From a virus (lineage: Duplodnaviria > Heunggongvirae > Uroviricota > Caudoviricetes): 4,401 bases of DNA. Under the pieces are notes generated by a model, which saw only the letters and a program-made list of their open reading frames with translations, did no database searches and was not told where the DNA came from. Positions 2-4,401 of the stretch are shown here, piece by piece (the stretch's first letter is position 1; every line of letters begins with the position of its first letter). The stretch lies in the IMG/VR virus record IMGVR_UViG_2529292907_000005. One strand, given 5' to 3'. The translations under genes were made by a program, and so were the position numbers.

Positions 2-2182
2 TCAGCCAGCGAGGCGGCAACTCATGCGACTGATGCTGCAGGCTCAGCACGTGCAGCCAGCACGTCAGCCGGACAGGCCGCGTCGTCGGCTCAGTCAGCG
101 TCTTCCAGCGCAGGAACGGCATCGACAAAGACCCGTGAAGCAGCAAAAAGTGCTGCTGCTGCAGAGTCATCAAAAAGCGCGGCAGCTACCAGCGCCAGTG
201 CCGCGAAAACGTCAGAAACGAATGCCGCAGCATCACAAAAATCGGCAGCCACTTCTGCATCCACAGCGACCACGAAGGCGTCAGAAGCTGCCACCTCGGC
301 ACGGGGTGCGGCGGCCTCAAAAGAGGCAGCGAAATCTTCAGAAACGAATGCATCATCAAGTGCCAGTAGTGCAGCTTCCTCGGCAACGGCGGCAGGAAAT
401 TCCGCGAAGGCGGCAAAAACGTCCGAGACGAACGCTAAGTCTTCTGAAACAGCAGCGGGACAGAGCGCCTCAGCTGCGGCAGGTTCAAAAACAGCGGCTG
501 CATTATCTGCCAGTGCCGCGTCAACAAGTGCCGGGCAGGCCTCAGCCAGTGCCACCGCCGCCGGAAAATCGGCAGAAAGCGCCGCATCATCCGCTTCAAC
601 AGCCACAACGAAGGCTGGCAAAGCCACTGAGCAAGCCACTGCAGCAGCGAGGTCTGCTTCTGCAGCAAAAACCTCTGAAACAAATGCAAAGACTTCAGCA
701 GACAATGCTGCTTCCTCTAAGGCGGCAGCCGCATCGTCAGCCAGTTCAGCGGCGTCATCGGCATCATCTGCGTCTGCTTCAAAAGATGAGGCGACCAGAC
801 AAGCGTCAGCAGCGAAAGGTAGTGCCACGACAGCAACAACGAAAGCATCAGAGGCGGCAGGCAGTGCGACGGCTGCATCTCAGAGCAAAGTTGCTGCTGA
901 ATCCGCGGCAACGCGCGCCGAGACAGCAGCAAAACGGGCAGAGGATATTGCATCCGCCGTGGCGCTGGAGGATGCGAGCACGACGAAAAAGGGGATAGTA
1001 CAGCTCAGCAGTGCGACCAACAGCACTTCCGAGTCACTGGCGGCAACGCCAAAAGCGGTTAAGGCGGTAATGGATGAAACGAACAAGAAAGCCCCATTAA
1101 ACAGCCCGGCACTGACCGGAACGCCAACAACACCAACTGCGCGACAGGGAACGAATAATACCCAAATCGCAAGCACGGCTTTCGTTATGGCTGCGATTGC
1201 CGCCCTTGTAGATTCGTCACCTGATGCACTGAACACGCTGAACGAGCTGGCTGCGGCGCTGGGCAACGACCCGAATTTTGCGACCACCATGACTAACGCG
1301 CTTGCGGGTAAGCAACCGAAAGATGCCACCCTGACGGCGCTGGCCGGACTTACTACTGCGGCAGGCAAGTTTCCGTATTTTACGGGGAATGATGTCGCCA
1401 GCCTGGCAACCCTGACAAAAGTCGGGCGGGATATTCTTGCGAAATCGACCGTTGCTGCCGTTATCGAATACCTCGGTTTACGAGAACTCGGCACAAGCGG
1501 GGAGAAAATACCGTTACTCAGTACAGCGAATACCTGGACTAATCGACAAACATTCAGCGGTGGCCTTTCAGGTGAACTATCCGGCAATGCTTCTACAGCT
1601 GCAAAATTAAAAACTGCCAGGAAAATAAGCAATGTGGCTTTTGATGGTTCCTCCGATATCACATTAAAAGCAAGTCATGTTGGTGCGTTTGCCTTAGGGA
1701 AAACAGGAAGCACCGTTGCGAATGATAAAGCAGTTGGATGGAACTGGAGTAGCGGAGCCTATAACGCAACTATTAGTGGTGCATCAACGTTAATTATTCA
1801 TTTTTATATGGGAGAAGGAAGTTGTCCTGCAGCTCAGTTTCGGATTAATTATAAAAATGGCGGTATTTTTTATCGTTCAGCCCGTGATGGTTATGGTTTT
1901 GAAGCCGACTGGTCAGAGTTTTACACCACGACCCGCAAACCCTCTGCGGGAGATGTTGGTGCATACACGCAGGCAGAATGTAACTCAAGGTTTATTACAG
2001 GTATTCGCCTTGGCGGTCTGTCATCTGTTCAGACATGGAATGGTCCCGGCTGGTCTGACAGGTCAGGTTATGTCGTTACGGGTTCAGTTAACGGAAACCG
2101 TGATGAATTAATTGATACAACTCAGGCAAGGCCAATTCAGTATTGCATTAATGGGACGTGGTATAACGCGGGGAGTATTTAA
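2..2182 (+). CDS. stf: Side tail fibre protein, 5'-partial: Ala/Ser/Thr-rich repeat shaft followed by a variable C-terminal (receptor-binding) domain; the start codon lies upstream of the window
   Basis: Frame 2 is open from the window edge to TAA at 2180..2182. The ORF track shows only 959..2182 because there is no in-frame ATG/GTG/TTG before the GTG at 959. My translation of 2..958 gives low-complexity repeats (...SAAKTSETNAKSSETAAGQSASAAAGSKTAAALSASAASTSAGQASASATAAGKSAESAASSASTATTKAG...), which I recognise as the lambdoid Stf-type shaft. The ORF continues through ...KFPYFTGNDVASLATLTKVGRDILAKSTVAAVIEYLGL and ends ...RPIQYCINGTWYNAGSI. Family assignment is from memory, not a search. Confidence 0.9.
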   Translation, partial: SASEAATHATDAAGSARAASTSAGQAASSAQSASSSAGTASTKTREAAKSAAAAESSKSAAATSASAAKTSETNAAASQKSAATSASTATTKASEAATSARGAAASKEAAKSSETNASSSASSAASSATAAGNSAKAAKTSETNAKSSETAAGQSASAAAGSKTAAALSASAASTSAGQASASATAAGKSAESAASSASTATTKAGKATEQATAAARSASAAKTSETNAKTSADNAASSKAAAASSASSAASSASSASASKDEATRQASAAKGSATTATTKASEAAGSATAASQSKVAAESAATRAETAAKRAEDIASAVALEDASTTKKGIVQLSSATNSTSESLAATPKAVKAVMDETNKKAPLNSPALTGTPTTPTARQGTNNTQIASTAFVMAAIAALVDSSPDALNTLNELAAALGNDPNFATTMTNALAGKQPKDATLTALAGLTTAAGKFPYFTGNDVASLATLTKVGRDILAKSTVAAVIEYLGLRELGTSGEKIPLLSTANTWTNRQTFSGGLSGELSGNASTAAKLKTARKISNVAFDGSSDITLKASHVGAFALGKTGSTVANDKAVGWNWSSGAYNATISGASTLIIHFYMGEGSCPAAQFRINYKNGGIFYRSARDGYGFEADWSEFYTTTRKPSAGDVGAYTQAECNSRFITGIRLGGLSSVQTWNGPGWSDRSGYVVTGSVNGNRDELIDTTQARPIQYCINGTWYNAGSI
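195..690 (+). repeat. Degenerate in-frame repeats inside the stf shaft region, built on a ~21-nt unit encoding K-[TS]-S-E-T-N-A
   Basis: Four copies of the motif AAA-[AT]C[GTC]-TC[ACT]-GA[AG]-AC[GA]-AA[TC]-GC are seen near 196, 331, 417 and 668 (gcgaaaacgtcagaaacgaatgc, gcgaaatcttcagaaacgaatgc, gcaaaaacgtccgagacgaacgc, gcaaaaacctctgaaacaaatgc). They sit within a longer Ala/Ser-rich low-complexity region spanning about 1..960. Confidence 0.6.
1222..1481 (+). repeat. Left arm of a long inverted repeat (partner 4142..4401), lying in the stf constant region just outside the crossover site
   Basis: Direct comparison of + 1222..1481 with the reverse complement of 4142..4401 shows the inner 116 bp (1366..1481 vs 4257..4142) identical and the outer 144 bp differing at about nine positions by eye. 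Homology stops abruptly at 1482 (cGAgaaCtCg vs cAGgaaAtGg). Confidence 0.9.
1461..1486 (+). other. Putative serine-invertase crossover site (gix/pix/cix/hix-like), left copy, with core dinucleotide at 1473..1474
   Basis: TTATCGAATACC-TC-GGTTTACGAGAA is an imperfect 12-2-12 palindrome matching the TTATC..AAACC-NN-GGTTT..GATAA pattern of DNA-invertase sites as I recall them. It lies exactly at the boundary between flank homology and the divergent cassette. Confidence 0.7.
2168..2175 (+). promoter_or_regulatory. Ribosome-binding site for tfa (GCGGGGAG), about 9 nt upstream of the ATG; translationally coupled to stf (stop at 2180..2182, start at 2185)
   Basis: Purine-rich GGGGAG at 2170..2175 sits at canonical spacing from the ATG at 2185..2187. 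Confidence 0.55.
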
Positions 2183-2184
2183 TT

Positions 2185-2718
2185 ATGCAGCACTTAAAAA
2201 ACATTACTGCTGGCAATCCTAAAACAAAAGAGCAATACCAGCTAACAAAGCAATTTAACATCAAATGGCTTTATTCAGATGATGGAAAAAACTGGTATGA
2301 GGAACAAAAGAATTTCCAGCCAGACACATTGAAAATGGCCTATGACCATAACGGCGTTATTATTTGTATTGAAAAGGATGTTTCAGCAATTAATCCGGAA
2401 GGCGCAAGCGTCGTTGAATTACCTGATATTACAGCAAATCGCCGTGCTGACATTTCGGGTAAATGGATGTTCAAAGATGGCGTAGTGGTAAAGCGAACTT
2501 ATACCGAGGAAGAGCAGAGGCAGCAGGCGGAAAATGAAAAGCAAAGCCTGCTACAGCTCGTCAGGGATAAAACCCAGCTATGGGACTCACAGCTACGGCT
2601 GGGCATCATTTCCGACGAGAATAAACAAAAATTAACAGAGTGGATGCTCTTTGCGCAGAAAGTCGAATCTACAGACACTTCCAGCCTGCCAGTAACGTTT
2701 CCCGAACAACCTGAATGA
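2185..2718 (+). CDS. tfa: Tail fibre assembly protein (Tfa-type chaperone), 177 aa
   Basis: Intact ORF from the track, starting 2 nt after the stf stop with a good RBS. The protein ([22 protein letters not shown]...[30 protein letters not shown]...) matches my memory of enterobacterial phage Tfa proteins, and its position immediately downstream of a tail fibre gene fits. Confidence 0.9.
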   Translation: MQHLKNITAGNPKTKEQYQLTKQFNIKWLYSDDGKNWYEEQKNFQPDTLKMAYDHNGVIICIEKDVSAINPEGASVVELPDITANRRADISGKWMFKDGVVVKRTYTEEEQRQQAENEKQSLLQLVRDKTQLWDSQLRLGIISDENKQKLTEWMLFAQKVESTDTSSLPVTFPEQPE

Positions 2719-2721
2719 GAC

Positions 2722-2748
2722 AAGGCCCGCTATCGGGCCTTAATTTTT
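2722..2748 (+). terminator. Intrinsic terminator hairpin between the convergent tfa genes (8-bp GC-rich stem AAGGCCCG / CGGGCCTT, 4-nt loop, then AATTTTT)
   Basis: Perfect inverted repeat at 2722..2729 and 2734..2741 followed by a T-run at 2744..2748, located in the 28-bp gap between the tfa stop (2716..2718) and the tfa' stop (2747..2749). The U-tract is good only for the + strand direction. Confidence 0.6.
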
Positions 2749-3273
2749 ATTCAGGCTTTTGTGGCCATTCGGGATTTGCTGTATCCACACGGCTGACCAG
2801 AACGCTGTAGCGTTCCCATGACTCCAGTCGTGCGCGCTCCTCATCCGTCGCCATGTTCAGCCTGACAGCGCGTTCCAGTGGCTGGATAACTGATTCAGCT
2901 TCGGAAAGTAATGCGGCCTTTTGTGATTTGGCCTGTTGTTGCTGTTCGTCTGCCGTATAAATCCGCTTAACTACAGCCCCGTCCTTAAACATCCACTTAC
3001 CTGAATCATCGGCACGGCGATTAGCTGTAATATCAGGAACTTCAACGACGCTATAGCCTTCAGGGTTAAGCGTGGAGGCATCTTTGGTGATGGCGACAAT
3101 AATATTATTCTCGTCATAAAGAATTTTTATTGTGTCTTCCTGAAAGTTCTTTAATTCCTCGTACCAGTTTTTCCCATCTTCTGACCACAACCAGATAACA
3201 TCAAAATTCTTTGTTAGCTGATATTGCTCTTTTGTTTTAGGATTGCCAGCAGTAATGTTTTTAAATGCTGCAT
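2747..3273 (-). CDS. tfa: Second tail fibre assembly protein (tfa'), frame-disrupted as sequenced: the ATG at 3273..3271 encodes MQHLK, then a one-base-shorter poly-A tract shifts the frame (stop at 3216..3214); the homologous frame is open from 3190 to the stop at 2749..2747
   Basis: The reverse complement of 3273..3250 is ATGCAGCATTTAAAAACATTACTG, against ATGCAGCACTTAAAAAACATTACTG in the + copy at 2185. The other frame reads ...[36 protein letters not shown]... and matches the track ORF 2747..3190, whose listed start is a TTG. The C-terminal part (...[35 protein letters not shown]...[30 protein letters not shown]) is Tfa-like. Confidence 0.8.
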
Positions 3274-3276
3274 GAT

Positions 3277-4092
3277 TTATACCTGTGCAACGTTATACCA
3301 TGTGCCATTGATGTATTTTTGTATTGGTCTGAACACAGCCGGATCATCGCCATCAACTTCGCCGACAATGCCAAGCCCCGTAATTGCATGGCCTGATTTT
3401 TCATACATCACGCCTCTTTGCATAGTTTGAACAACACGCGTGCCAAGTCTGACATCTCTCACATAGCGTGAATCAAAATTCCCCCAGTTGCTGGGTTGTA
3501 TCTGACCGTTTACAGCAAATATCACCGAGTTATCTGTATTTCGCTGACTATAGAAATGCCAGCCTGAATCATCACCAAGCTCTGCAACAGTTGGTCTTGA
3601 TGAAGCGCCCCATAAATTAAACCCTACGTTCTTCGTGGAGTTGTTGGAGCTGGATAGCGTGAATTTTTTACCATCCCCAGCCTGAATATTTTTAAAAGCA
3701 ATAGCCACTCCATTCTGAAAGCGGAATACACGCTGACTATTAGCATAAACATCAAGAATACCGTCTCCATTCTGTTTAAATCCGGTATCATTATCACCAA
3801 GAACAATAGAGCTACCACCTAACGCATTCGTCGTACCAACTCCAAGGCTGCCATTAATGACGGCATTAACAAGAATATTTAGCGCATCCCATTTCAGCGT
3901 CATCAGGTCTTTTGTTGTGGTGCTTTGTTTGCTTCTCCATTTGAAATATTCATTGCCGTTGTCGCCTGTTTCAAACCACATGTATGAATCAGTGTCACCA
4001 TCGGCATCATTTTTAAATCCAATCTTCGCCCAGTCAGTATTTCGAATCCAGGCAAGGATTGAGTCATTTTCAAAAGTAAGCCCACCGGACAA
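3277..4092 (-). CDS. Alternative tail-fibre C-terminal variable domain (inverted cassette); the frame is open upstream to 4116 but is not in frame with the fibre constant region as sequenced
   Basis: Track ORF of 271 aa, whose listed start is a TTG at 4092..4090, ending ...[17 protein letters not shown] with the same C-terminal motif as the + strand fibre. Upstream in this frame it reads RRAKNGDTL before a stop at 4119..4117. It is followed 3 nt later by the tfa' ATG. Confidence 0.8.
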
Positions 4093-4401
4093 AGTATCGC
4101 CATTTTTTGCACGGCGTTACCAGCCCTGTTTACCATTTCCTGTAAACCGAGGTATTCGATAACGGCAGCAACGGTCGATTTCGCAAGAATATCCCGCCCG
4201 ACTTTTGTCAGGGTTGCCAGGCTGGCGACATCATTCCCCGTAAAATACGGAAACTTGTCTGCCGCAGTAGCAAGCCCGGCCAGCGCCGTCAGGGTGGCAT
4301 CTTTCGGTTGCTTACCCGCAAGCGCGTTAGTCATGGTGGTCGCAAAATTCGGGTCGTTTCCCAGCGCCGCCGCTAACTCGTTCAGCGTATTCAGTGCGTC
4401 A
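3900..4401 (-). CDS. Inward-reading tail-fibre constant-region copy, 5'-partial (continues beyond the right edge); it reads through the crossover site and, because of the frame problem at 4103..4108, runs into a stop at 3902..3900
   Basis: The reverse complement of 4401..4142 encodes DALNTLNELAAALGNDPNFATTMTNALAGKQPKDATLTALAGLATAADKFPYFTGNDVASLATLTKVGRDILAKSTVAAVIEYLGL, near-identical to + strand residues encoded at 1222..1481. It then continues QEMVNRAGNAVQK and an out-of-frame tail (MAILCPVG...QQKT*). Confidence 0.65.
4137..4162 (-). other. Putative serine-invertase crossover site, right copy, with core dinucleotide at 4149..4150
   Basis: The + strand reads TTCCTGTAAACC-GA-GGTATTCGATAA; the minus strand reads TTATCGAATACC-TC-GGTTTACAGGAA. 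It has the same outer half-site and core as the left site and differs at 2 positions in the inner half-site. My recollection is that it is very close to the Mu gix sequence. Confidence 0.7.
4142..4401 (-). repeat. Right arm of the long inverted repeat (partner 1222..1481); it reaches the window edge, so its true length is unknown
   Basis: See the left arm: 116 bp identical plus 144 bp with about nine mismatches. Confidence 0.9.

Follow-up and report, generated by a model that had tools for sequence, protein, structure and literature searches.

What is the stretch of phage DNA shown above, in which two convergent pairs of tail-fibre genes lie between two inverted 26-bp elements, and which enzyme could invert it when a second fibre shaft stands where the recombinase gene is usually found? 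The window, i.e. the whole stretch that was analysed, corresponds to the entire draft contig AIFW01000052.1 (4,401 bp). We consider the region, with a probability of roughly 0.88, to be a homologue of the Mu G segment, which flips a tail-fibre tip by means of a serine invertase of the Gin/Cin/Pin family acting at two 26-bp sites. This kind of switch is already known and ordinary, here it lies in an E. coli prophage, and the cassette is of about 2.7 kb. As one more case of the textbook host-range switch of Mu G, P1 C and e14 P, common in E. coli prophages, it carries little weight on its own.

Crossover sites and gene content

The features of the window are as follows.

2..1472, + strand: shaft (constant part) of a lambdoid side tail fibre (Stf), matching PHROG tail-fibre families; incomplete at the left contig end
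1461..1486, + strand: left crossover site, TTATCGAATACC-TC-GGTTTACGAGAA, core at 1473-1474, within VIEYLGLRE codons
1487..2182, + strand: variable tip 1, continuing the frame of the left shaft, stop codon at 2180-2182
2185..2718, + strand: tail-fibre assembly chaperone 1 (tfa1, U' type), intact, 177 aa, PF02413 with E 1.8e-36
2722..2741, + strand: terminator-like GC-rich hairpin between the convergent chaperone genes, T tract on the + strand
2747..3273, - strand: tail-fibre assembly chaperone 2 (tfa2, U type), -1 deletion in the T run 3258-3262 (T6 in relatives)
3277..4136, - strand: variable tip 2, of the P88_4B11 / Shae_phiSM type and in part similar to Mu S / P1 S; T run 4103-4108 with a -1 deletion (T7 in relatives)
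4137..4162, - strand: right crossover site, reverse complement TTATCGAATACC-TC-GGTTTACAGGAA, core at 4149-4150
4163..4401, - strand: final 239 nt of another fibre shaft, directed inward, of the gene H type of P88-like phages (Xuanwuvirus) and truncated where the contig stops

The sequence-only reading had proposed two inverted sites of 12-2-12 structure with a common TC core, and their positions proved to be exact. The two sites share 24/26 positions, differing from each other solely at 1482-1483, and their half-sites are self-complementary at 9/12 and 7/12 positions. Alignment against experimentally defined invertase sites, with the Mu gix reference taken from AF083977 at the annotated G-segment boundaries, gave 24/26 matches for the right site and 22/26 for the left. 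The specificity expected of the elements was also borne out: a degenerate gix-type pattern matched these two sites only in the window and was absent from 200 dinucleotide-preserving shuffles (0/200), which rules out chance palindromes. No third site was detected in the window with up to 7 mismatches tolerated, and with two sites only, a multiple-inversion system of the kind found in Min/p15B or the P2-like EPEC shufflon, which has at least three sites, is ruled out as well.

Both sites also recur in relatives. The 26-mer of the left site is found at segment ends in loci L001, L008, L033, L063 and L120, and the right site is identical to the shaft-side site of strains ES1 and ES6, which show inversion (see below). 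Among 42 IMG/VR loci the core is TC in 84/84 sites, and the two inner half-site variants pair with either outer half (13 vs 3); such reassortment of inner variants with outer halves is as expected of exchange at the core.

The DNA between the sites comprises 2,650 bp and is approximately 90% identical to the Mu G, D108 and P1 C segments, in whose records the invertible segment is annotated; a P88-like prophage of E. coli strain 15A has a cassette with 99.9% identity to it. As had been proposed, it carries two tips and two tfa genes in convergent arrangement, and both chaperones belong to the Caudo_TAP family (PF02413). On the + strand the frame is open from 2 to 2182 and runs through the left site. 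The Stf shaft consists of Ala/Ser-rich repeats to position ~950 and is from ~998 of a type common to P2-family fibre shafts; it is 98.2% identical to the lambdoid stf of NCTC86, with no difference over 1109-1497. Tip 1 is of the Mu S' / P1 Sv' type in its C-terminal 165 residues, which show 91.5% identity to Mu S', and tfa1 is 95.5% identical to Mu U'. The stem of the hairpin that separates the two chaperone genes is 8 bp long and includes 6 GC pairs; AATTTTTATT follows it.

In the sequenced state the lambdoid Stf shaft is joined to an S'-type tip, and the chaperone that comes next is of the U' type. The invertase would make staggered cuts in the 2-bp TC cores of both inverted 26-bp sites and, by a 180-degree exchange there, flip about 2.65 kb. 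Since both sites fall within the fibre reading frame, the inversion changes the C-terminal part of the fibre together with the chaperone: the crossover would occur inside the fibre frame (codons ...VIEYLGL, followed on the other side of the crossover by R or Q and E...), so that the C-terminal receptor-binding part and the next chaperone would be exchanged for the silent pair on the opposite strand.

Inversion in relatives and comparison with known segments

Natural inversion is seen between strains ES1 and ES6, which have the same lambdoid prophage but with the cassette turned round in one relative to the other. The flanking sequences align collinearly (99.9% and 99.8% identity), the stretch 5457-8543 is inverted at 99.8%, and the breakpoints lie in the sites. 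Complete genomes covering the query at 80% or more had the native order in 33 cases and the flipped order in 28. For segments of e14 and of Mu-like and P2-like prophages, active flipping is reported from cultures of E. coli (PMC4272514). The switch may be active in the present strain. The proposal of a gix-bounded invertible host-range cassette of the Gin/Pin type is therefore supported by the sites, by homology and by inversion in relatives. The pair NCTC86 and IPCEC48 (L008 and L009) was rejected as an example of clean inversion; the chaperone order is reversed, but by BLAST the cassettes are different mosaics.

The region resembles the Mu / D108 G segment (Gin, gix) in having 26-bp sites with a TC core and the gix matches given above, cassette DNA that is about 91-92% identical across the aligned parts, convergent tip and chaperone pairs, and a site inside the fibre ORF; the U', U and S' C-terminus of Mu are 92-96% identical to their counterparts. 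It differs from Mu in that the shaft is a lambdoid Stf rather than Mu S, tip 2 is merely 47% identical to Mu S, and gin is absent from the position 54 nt outside the distal site, with the second shaft in its place. The inverted repeat flanking the cassette is also at least 265 nt long, while the one in Mu is usually quoted as 34 bp.

The P1 / P7 C segment (Cin, cix) has homologous central cassette DNA (89-90%) and alternative Sv/U and Sv'/U' pairs. However, the cix core is TT, and at least 5/26 positions differ from the window sites (5 positions between cixR and the right site); the long inverted repeats of P1 are located inside the segment, whereas the repeat in the window is outside the sites.

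The similarity to the P2-family Xuanwuvirus phages (P88, P88_4B11, Shae_phiSM) covers 1457-4401, which aligns in one piece at about 90%, with an identical shaft-side site and a tip 2 that is 92% identical, and the P88-like prophage of E. coli 15A agrees with the window at 99.9-100% identity across right flank and cassette. In Xuanwuvirus the other cassette end abuts an invertase gene, whereas that of the window abuts the lambdoid Stf shaft. Lambdoid Stf shafts joined to alternative tips by a Gin-family invertase are found in the e14 P segment (Pin) and in lambdoid stf-tfa inversions, and the closest shafts, those of NCTC86, IPCEC48, ES1 and ES6, are arranged as in e14, a pin remnant being located 54 nt beyond the distal site. 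The P segment of e14 is 1.8 kb long (PMC12529663) and flips (PMC4272514, PMC12529663); its contents differ from those of the window cassette, and the window has no pin gene or remnant.

The absent invertase and the second shaft

The sequence-only reading had found no recombinase gene in the window, and this agrees with the negative outcome of tblastn and blastn searches of the window with Gin, the P88 invertase and cin, which also rules out an invertase hidden in another frame; the contig reaches 239 nt past the right site. In the Mu G family, a serine invertase gene adjoins the distal site and contains a Fis-dependent enhancer in its 5' part. The invertase gene, or a remnant of it, begins 54 nt outside the distal site in 35/36 IMG/VR loci and in 8/9 further relatives, and this usual start position is here occupied by the second fibre shaft. 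An invertase would thus have to be supplied in trans from another part of the genome, with a P88-like prophage as its most plausible source. This source is favoured because the cassette and the right flank match at 99.9-100% the strain 15A prophage, which has an intact invertase of 195 aa. Action in trans between prophages is known for PinQ, which acts on e14 (PMC12529663).

Homology of the right flank to the left had been correctly recognised from the sequence alone, and it stops, as described, at the inner half-sites, identity beyond the inner ends dropping to background; its nature is that of an inward second copy of a fibre shaft. The inverted repeat so formed (1222-1486 vs 4137-4401) is 265 nt long with 11 mismatches (96% identical), and its outer end is simply the contig end. 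The right shaft equals the P88-like shaft of strain 15A; between it and the left shaft there are 9 differences.

If the double shaft were real, inversion could in principle be driven by RecA-dependent recombination between the inverted shaft copies (at least 265 bp) and not by site-specific exchange. The inverted arms of at least 265 nt outside the sites, 96% identical, would speak for this, but the homology ends precisely at the inner ends of canonical gix-type sites, the breakpoints lie in the sites also in relatives without long arms, and the inner half-site variants reassort with the outer halves as core exchange predicts. We therefore regard RecA-driven inversion as very improbable, and retain site-specific exchange at the two sites.

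The layout itself may reflect an assembly path, since the window is the whole of a 4.4-kb draft contig. The other double-shaft cases encountered were one 4.1-kb contig and one contig end (both from IMG/VR, with identical arms) and the record of strain 15A, where a perfect 17.5-kb mirror lies beside a record start that is cut inside a recombinase gene and where the double-shaft layout looks like a misassembly. Double-shaft layouts are thus limited to short or terminal contigs and one suspect assembly, and the present one is probably the result of an assembler walk through a cassette common to lambdoid and P88-like prophages, with probably no physical linkage between the two shafts.

The 9 differences between the arms set the contig apart from the simple one-locus hairpin of L033 and L076. 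The left arm equals the lambdoid NCTC86 shaft over 1109-1497 and the right arm is of the 15A P88 type, and as the arms trace to different shafts, two loci are involved. This would also be found at a real junction, in which a single cassette is positioned between the convergent fibre genes of two prophages, the lambdoid Stf to the left and the P88-like H to the right. Such a junction could have originated by invertase exchange, with the shaft-side site of one prophage recombining with the invertase-side site of the second, or else by homologous recombination inside the cassettes, and it would have inverted the chromosome between the two prophages. In this arrangement every flip would exchange the tips of the two fibres, and at the reciprocal junction a cassette flanked by two invertase genes would be expected. 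In agreement with this, the parentage changes within 1365-1498, an interval that includes the crossover site, both sites have the shaft-type outer half TTATCGAATACC, as core exchange between prophages predicts, and a double-shaft layout is present in the 'complete' genome of strain 15A.

However, a graph walk through the common cassette would give an equal marker pattern, the contig is just 4.4 kb long and ends in repeats, and the combination of a lambdoid shaft to the left and a P88 shaft to the right occurred in none of 5,426 complete genomes (0/5,426). The strain 15A record and the two IMG/VR cases count against a real junction for the reasons given above, and we consider it unlikely. If it were true, two phages would exchange their receptor-binding tips in a single flip, and the junction would mark a chromosomal inversion from prophage to prophage, with Gin-family invertases shuffling tips as well as chromosome segments between unrelated prophages. 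On the favoured reading as an assembly path, the case illustrates that draft assemblers can put a fibre shaft on both sides of a cassette; because the shaft can be duplicated in this way, it should not be taken as biology when a short contig lacks an invertase or shows an odd inverted repeat.

Frameshifts in the opposite-strand genes

Both genes on the minus strand carry a -1 deletion in a T run. As sequenced, the ATG frame of tfa2 ends after 19 codons, whereas with one T restored it encodes 175 aa that are 93.7% identical to Mu U; its deletion occurs in 0 complete E. coli genomes matching that stretch. Restoring one T in tip 2 gives a frame without stops from 4401 to 3277, whose product is identical (374/374) to the right-hand fibre of strain 15A, and the extra base at 4103-4108 is carried by all of about 125 complete-genome records. 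The two deletions are either homopolymer sequencing errors or private mutations; taken by themselves, they suit a locked switch in decay no less than they suit sequencing error.

The suggestion that a flip joins the constant shaft to the other tip holds with regard to the junction itself, where the frame is kept (…EYLGLQEMVNRAGNAVQK); 11 codons further on, however, comes the frameshift at 4103-4108. In the modelled flip of the DNA as sequenced, Stf terminates 81 codons beyond the junction and the alternative chaperone is frameshifted too. The deletions in both minus-strand genes imply that the flipped state yields a truncated fibre, unless they are sequencing errors; if real, they would make the flipped state non-functional.

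The deletions bear on whether the cassette could be a locked relic, fixed in the S'/U' state with no working invertase while the silent tip 2 and tfa2 decay by frameshift. Both private deletions do fall in unexpressed genes while the 2.7 kb of expressed genes on the + strand are intact, and many lambdoid relatives have invertase remnants of 60-100 aa only. Yet the two T runs affected are the longest ones, as is classic for under-calling of homopolymers, and finding two deletions within 1.4 of 4.4 kb is not significant (~0.1 by chance). The deletions aside, the cassette has just 3 substitutions relative to its strain 15A counterpart, and both crossover sites are intact. We therefore regard a locked relic as possible but rather doubtful; the relatives with truncated invertases still occur in both orientations.

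Crossover sites and the cassette between them

The sequence-only reading had proposed an invertible host-range switch of the Mu G, P1 C and e14 P kind, and our data support this in every feature that can be tested on the contig, save an adjacent invertase. Two intact gix-type sites lie within the fibre frame, two alternative sets of fibre tip and chaperone are present, no invertase is encoded in cis, and homologous cassettes are inverted in nature. The system is of an already known kind, and its nearest named relatives are the invertible fibre region of Xuanwuvirus (P88-like) and the lambdoid stf-tfa inversions. What is added to the earlier reading is that the window is a whole short draft contig, that a second shaft takes the place of the invertase, that two private frameshifts are present, and that the layout has a probable origin in assembly.

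Features of the window (closest characterised relatives by identity)
1461-1486, left crossover site, TTATCGAATACC-TC-GGTTTACGAGAA
4137-4162, right crossover site, reverse complement TTATCGAATACC-TC-GGTTTACAGGAA
2 to stop at 2180-2182, plus strand, tail-fibre frame, one open frame, PHROG tail fibre; last 165 residues of tip 1 closest to Mu S' (91.5%)
2185-2718, plus strand, chaperone gene tfa1, intact, 177 aa, Caudo_TAP; closest to Mu U' (95.5%)
2722-2741, GC-rich hairpin 3' of tfa1
2747-3273, minus strand, chaperone gene tfa2, second Caudo_TAP gene; repaired, closest to Mu U (93.7%)
3277-4136, minus strand, fibre tip 2, second tip; repaired, closest to the P88_4B11 / Shae_phiSM tip (92%), 47% to Mu S

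The two inverted 26-bp sites are located exactly where they had first been read, and share the TC core; they are identical at 24 of 26 positions, with the sole differences at 1482-1483, and the self-complementarity of their half-sites is 9/12 and 7/12. A degenerate gix-type pattern matched at these two sites only and in none of 200 shuffles, and a looser scan (up to 7 mismatches) detected no third gix-type site in the window. The Mu gix reference was taken from AF083977 at the annotated G-segment boundaries, where both copies read TTATCCAAAACC-TC-GGTTTACAGGAA; its core is that of both window sites, with 2 mismatches to the right site and 4 to the left, and by this direct comparison the window sites are gix-type. 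P1 cixR, whose core is TT, has 5 mismatches to the right site. The outer half TTATCGAATACC, which is the shaft type, is present in both window sites, whereas the invertase-side outer half of canonical cassettes is TTATC/TTAAAACC. A 265-nt inverted repeat (1222-1486 versus 4137-4401, 11 mismatches) has the sites at its inner ends, and its outer limit is simply the end of the window's sequence. Identity collapses immediately inside both sites, in line with the claim that flank homology ends at the inner half-sites, and the GC content is 56-61% in the flanks versus 36-52% between the sites.

The two different tips, each with its own tfa and convergently arranged, were recovered as two sets of tip and Caudo_TAP gene on opposite strands, and the annotated invertible segments of Mu, D108, P1 and P7 share about 89-92% DNA identity with the cassette over the aligned parts. 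A 348-nt inverted repeat of 74% identity (2194-2541 versus 2918-3265) is also found here, since the homologous chaperone genes (U' and U types, 58% protein identity) face each other.

Single-base deletions in the minus-strand genes

Compared with its counterpart in E. coli strain 15A, the cassette has 3 substitutions (2093, 2328 and 2339) and two single-base deletions. The first deletion, in the T run 3258-3262 (T5 here, T6 in relatives), breaks tfa2 after 19 codons, and the second, in the T run 4103-4108 (T6 here, T7 in relatives), cuts tip 2 off from the junction; in a flipped model, the Stf frame passes the site in frame and then meets a stop 81 codons later. When the surrounding stretches were searched, the deletion at 4103-4108 was absent from all of about 125 matching complete-genome records, and that at 3258-3262 from all 14 full-length complete-genome matches. 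Either the sequencing under-called these homopolymers, or the switch is locked and its silent half has acquired private mutations.

Inversion of homologous cassettes

A shared lambdoid prophage adjoins bioA-ybhB in E. coli strains ES1 and ES6, with flanks collinear at 99.9% and 99.8%, and between them the segment 5457-8543 is inverted at 99.8% identity, the alignments overlapping within both sites. Their shaft-side site is identical to the right site of the window. A query in window order was covered to at least 80% in 33 complete E. coli genomes and a synthetic query with 1473-4150 flipped was covered in 28, and the genomes of native and flipped order are often sister strains from the same studies. 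Among 120 IMG/VR loci carrying the shaft-side site, a pair of inverted sites is present in 42, with TC in 84/84 cores; CAGGAA and CGAGAA, the two variants of the inner half-site, occur linked to either outer half (13 versus 3), which is what exchange at the core predicts. Segments of e14, Mu-like and P2-like prophages are reported to flip actively in E. coli cultures (PMC4272514).

The lambdoid prophages closest to the window shaft keep only an invertase remnant of 60-72 aa, located at about 8570-8790 in ES1 and ES6 (loci L012 and L013) and found also in loci L002, L008 and L009. Since both cassette orientations occur despite such remnants, the inversion must have taken place in trans or before the gene was truncated.

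In the NCTC86 prophage (L008), the first ~160 codons of tip 1 occur at both cassette ends (8487-8966 and 10948-11424), so that both variable parts share a proximal region, and P1 C has an internal inverted repeat like that of this cassette. The IMG/VR locus L102 has three gix-type sites (5181+, 6380+ and 9296-); the two that adjoin the invertase share an orientation and are separated by 1.2 kb, and the locus could be a multi-segment (shufflon-like) variant. The sites of another IMG/VR locus, L027, lie on the same strand (8650- and 11798-) with one inner half degenerate (GGGTTCTGGGAA), and it may represent a rearranged or locked cassette.

Two fibre shafts and the origin of the layout

The invertase gene or its remnant begins 54 nt outside the distal site in Mu, P88, P88_4B11, Shae_phiSM and the lambdoid relatives, with one annotated start at 30 nt; of the 36 IMG/VR loci with a Gin homologue, 35 show a spacing of exactly 54 nt. 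The 239 nt past the right site leave room for about 60 invertase codons. The recombinase gene had been taken to lie outside the window, and in agreement with this no similarity to Gin, P88 invertase or cin was found in the window at either protein or DNA level. What occupies the right flank is the last part of a second, inward-reading fibre shaft. Putting back one T at 4103-4108 opens the minus-strand frame all the way from 4401 to 3277, and its product is then identical (374/374) to the right-hand fibre protein of the P88-like prophage of O111:H21 strain 15A. The shafts do not share an origin: over 1109-1497 the left arm is identical to the lambdoid stf of NCTC86, the right arm matches the P88-type shaft of strain 15A without a difference, and 9 positions upstream of the site distinguish the two arms.

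By analogy with Gin, Hin and Cin, a serine invertase together with Fis and an enhancer, which normally lies within the 5' part of the invertase gene, would pair the sites, cut around the TC core and rotate the ends, and the flip would put the tip 2/U-type set in place of the S'/U'-type one and thereby change receptor specificity. For the window switch, we infer that the invertase must come in trans. An intact 195-aa invertase is encoded by the P88-like prophage of strain 15A, a prophage type that is the source of the cassette and right flank, and action in trans between prophages is described for PinQ on e14 (PMC12529663).

The window is the whole of contig AIFW01000052.1 (4,401 bp) in draft assembly GCA_000249615.2, and ends in repetitive Stf sequence on the left and in a shaft repeat on the right. 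A lambdoid shaft to the left and a P88-type shaft to the right of one cassette were found in 0 of 5,426 complete genomes. Strain 15A is the only complete genome with two shafts, and these look like an assembly problem, since the arms mirror each other perfectly over 17.5 kb (10,333-27,832 versus 30,485-47,984) save two inner half-site bases, and since the record begins inside a recombinase gene. Half of the P88-like prophage is there duplicated in inverted orientation around the cassette (NZ_CP077477.1, 10333-47984; locus L011), with an abrupt stop by pgsA. Probably the invertible region caused this mirror to be misassembled; alternatively, the inverted duplication is real and very recent. IMG/VR contains two further double-shaft cases: one is a contig of 4,110 bp whose arms match at 400/400 positions, and the other, at the end of a contig of 30.6 kb, has arms that agree everywhere save in the inner half-site. 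Because no complete genome shows the window layout, and because the other double-shaft cases are a suspect record, a short contig and a contig end, we consider the window contig to be one walk through the assembly graph of lambdoid and P88-like prophages with near-identical cassettes (probability about 0.7-0.8). A true junction between prophages, in which the shaft-side site of one was exchanged with the invertase-side site of the other, would yield exactly the window structure, and the left site falls within the interval, from marker 1365 to marker 1498, in which the parentage switches; however, an assembly walk predicts the same marker pattern, and we regard such a junction as unlikely.

The left part of the window (200-694) contains diverged 33-nt direct repeats encoding an A-K-(T/S)-S-E-T-N-A motif in the Ala/Ser-rich Stf shaft, a repeat family typical of lambdoid side tail fibres, and these repeats are the likely reason why the contig ends at this place.
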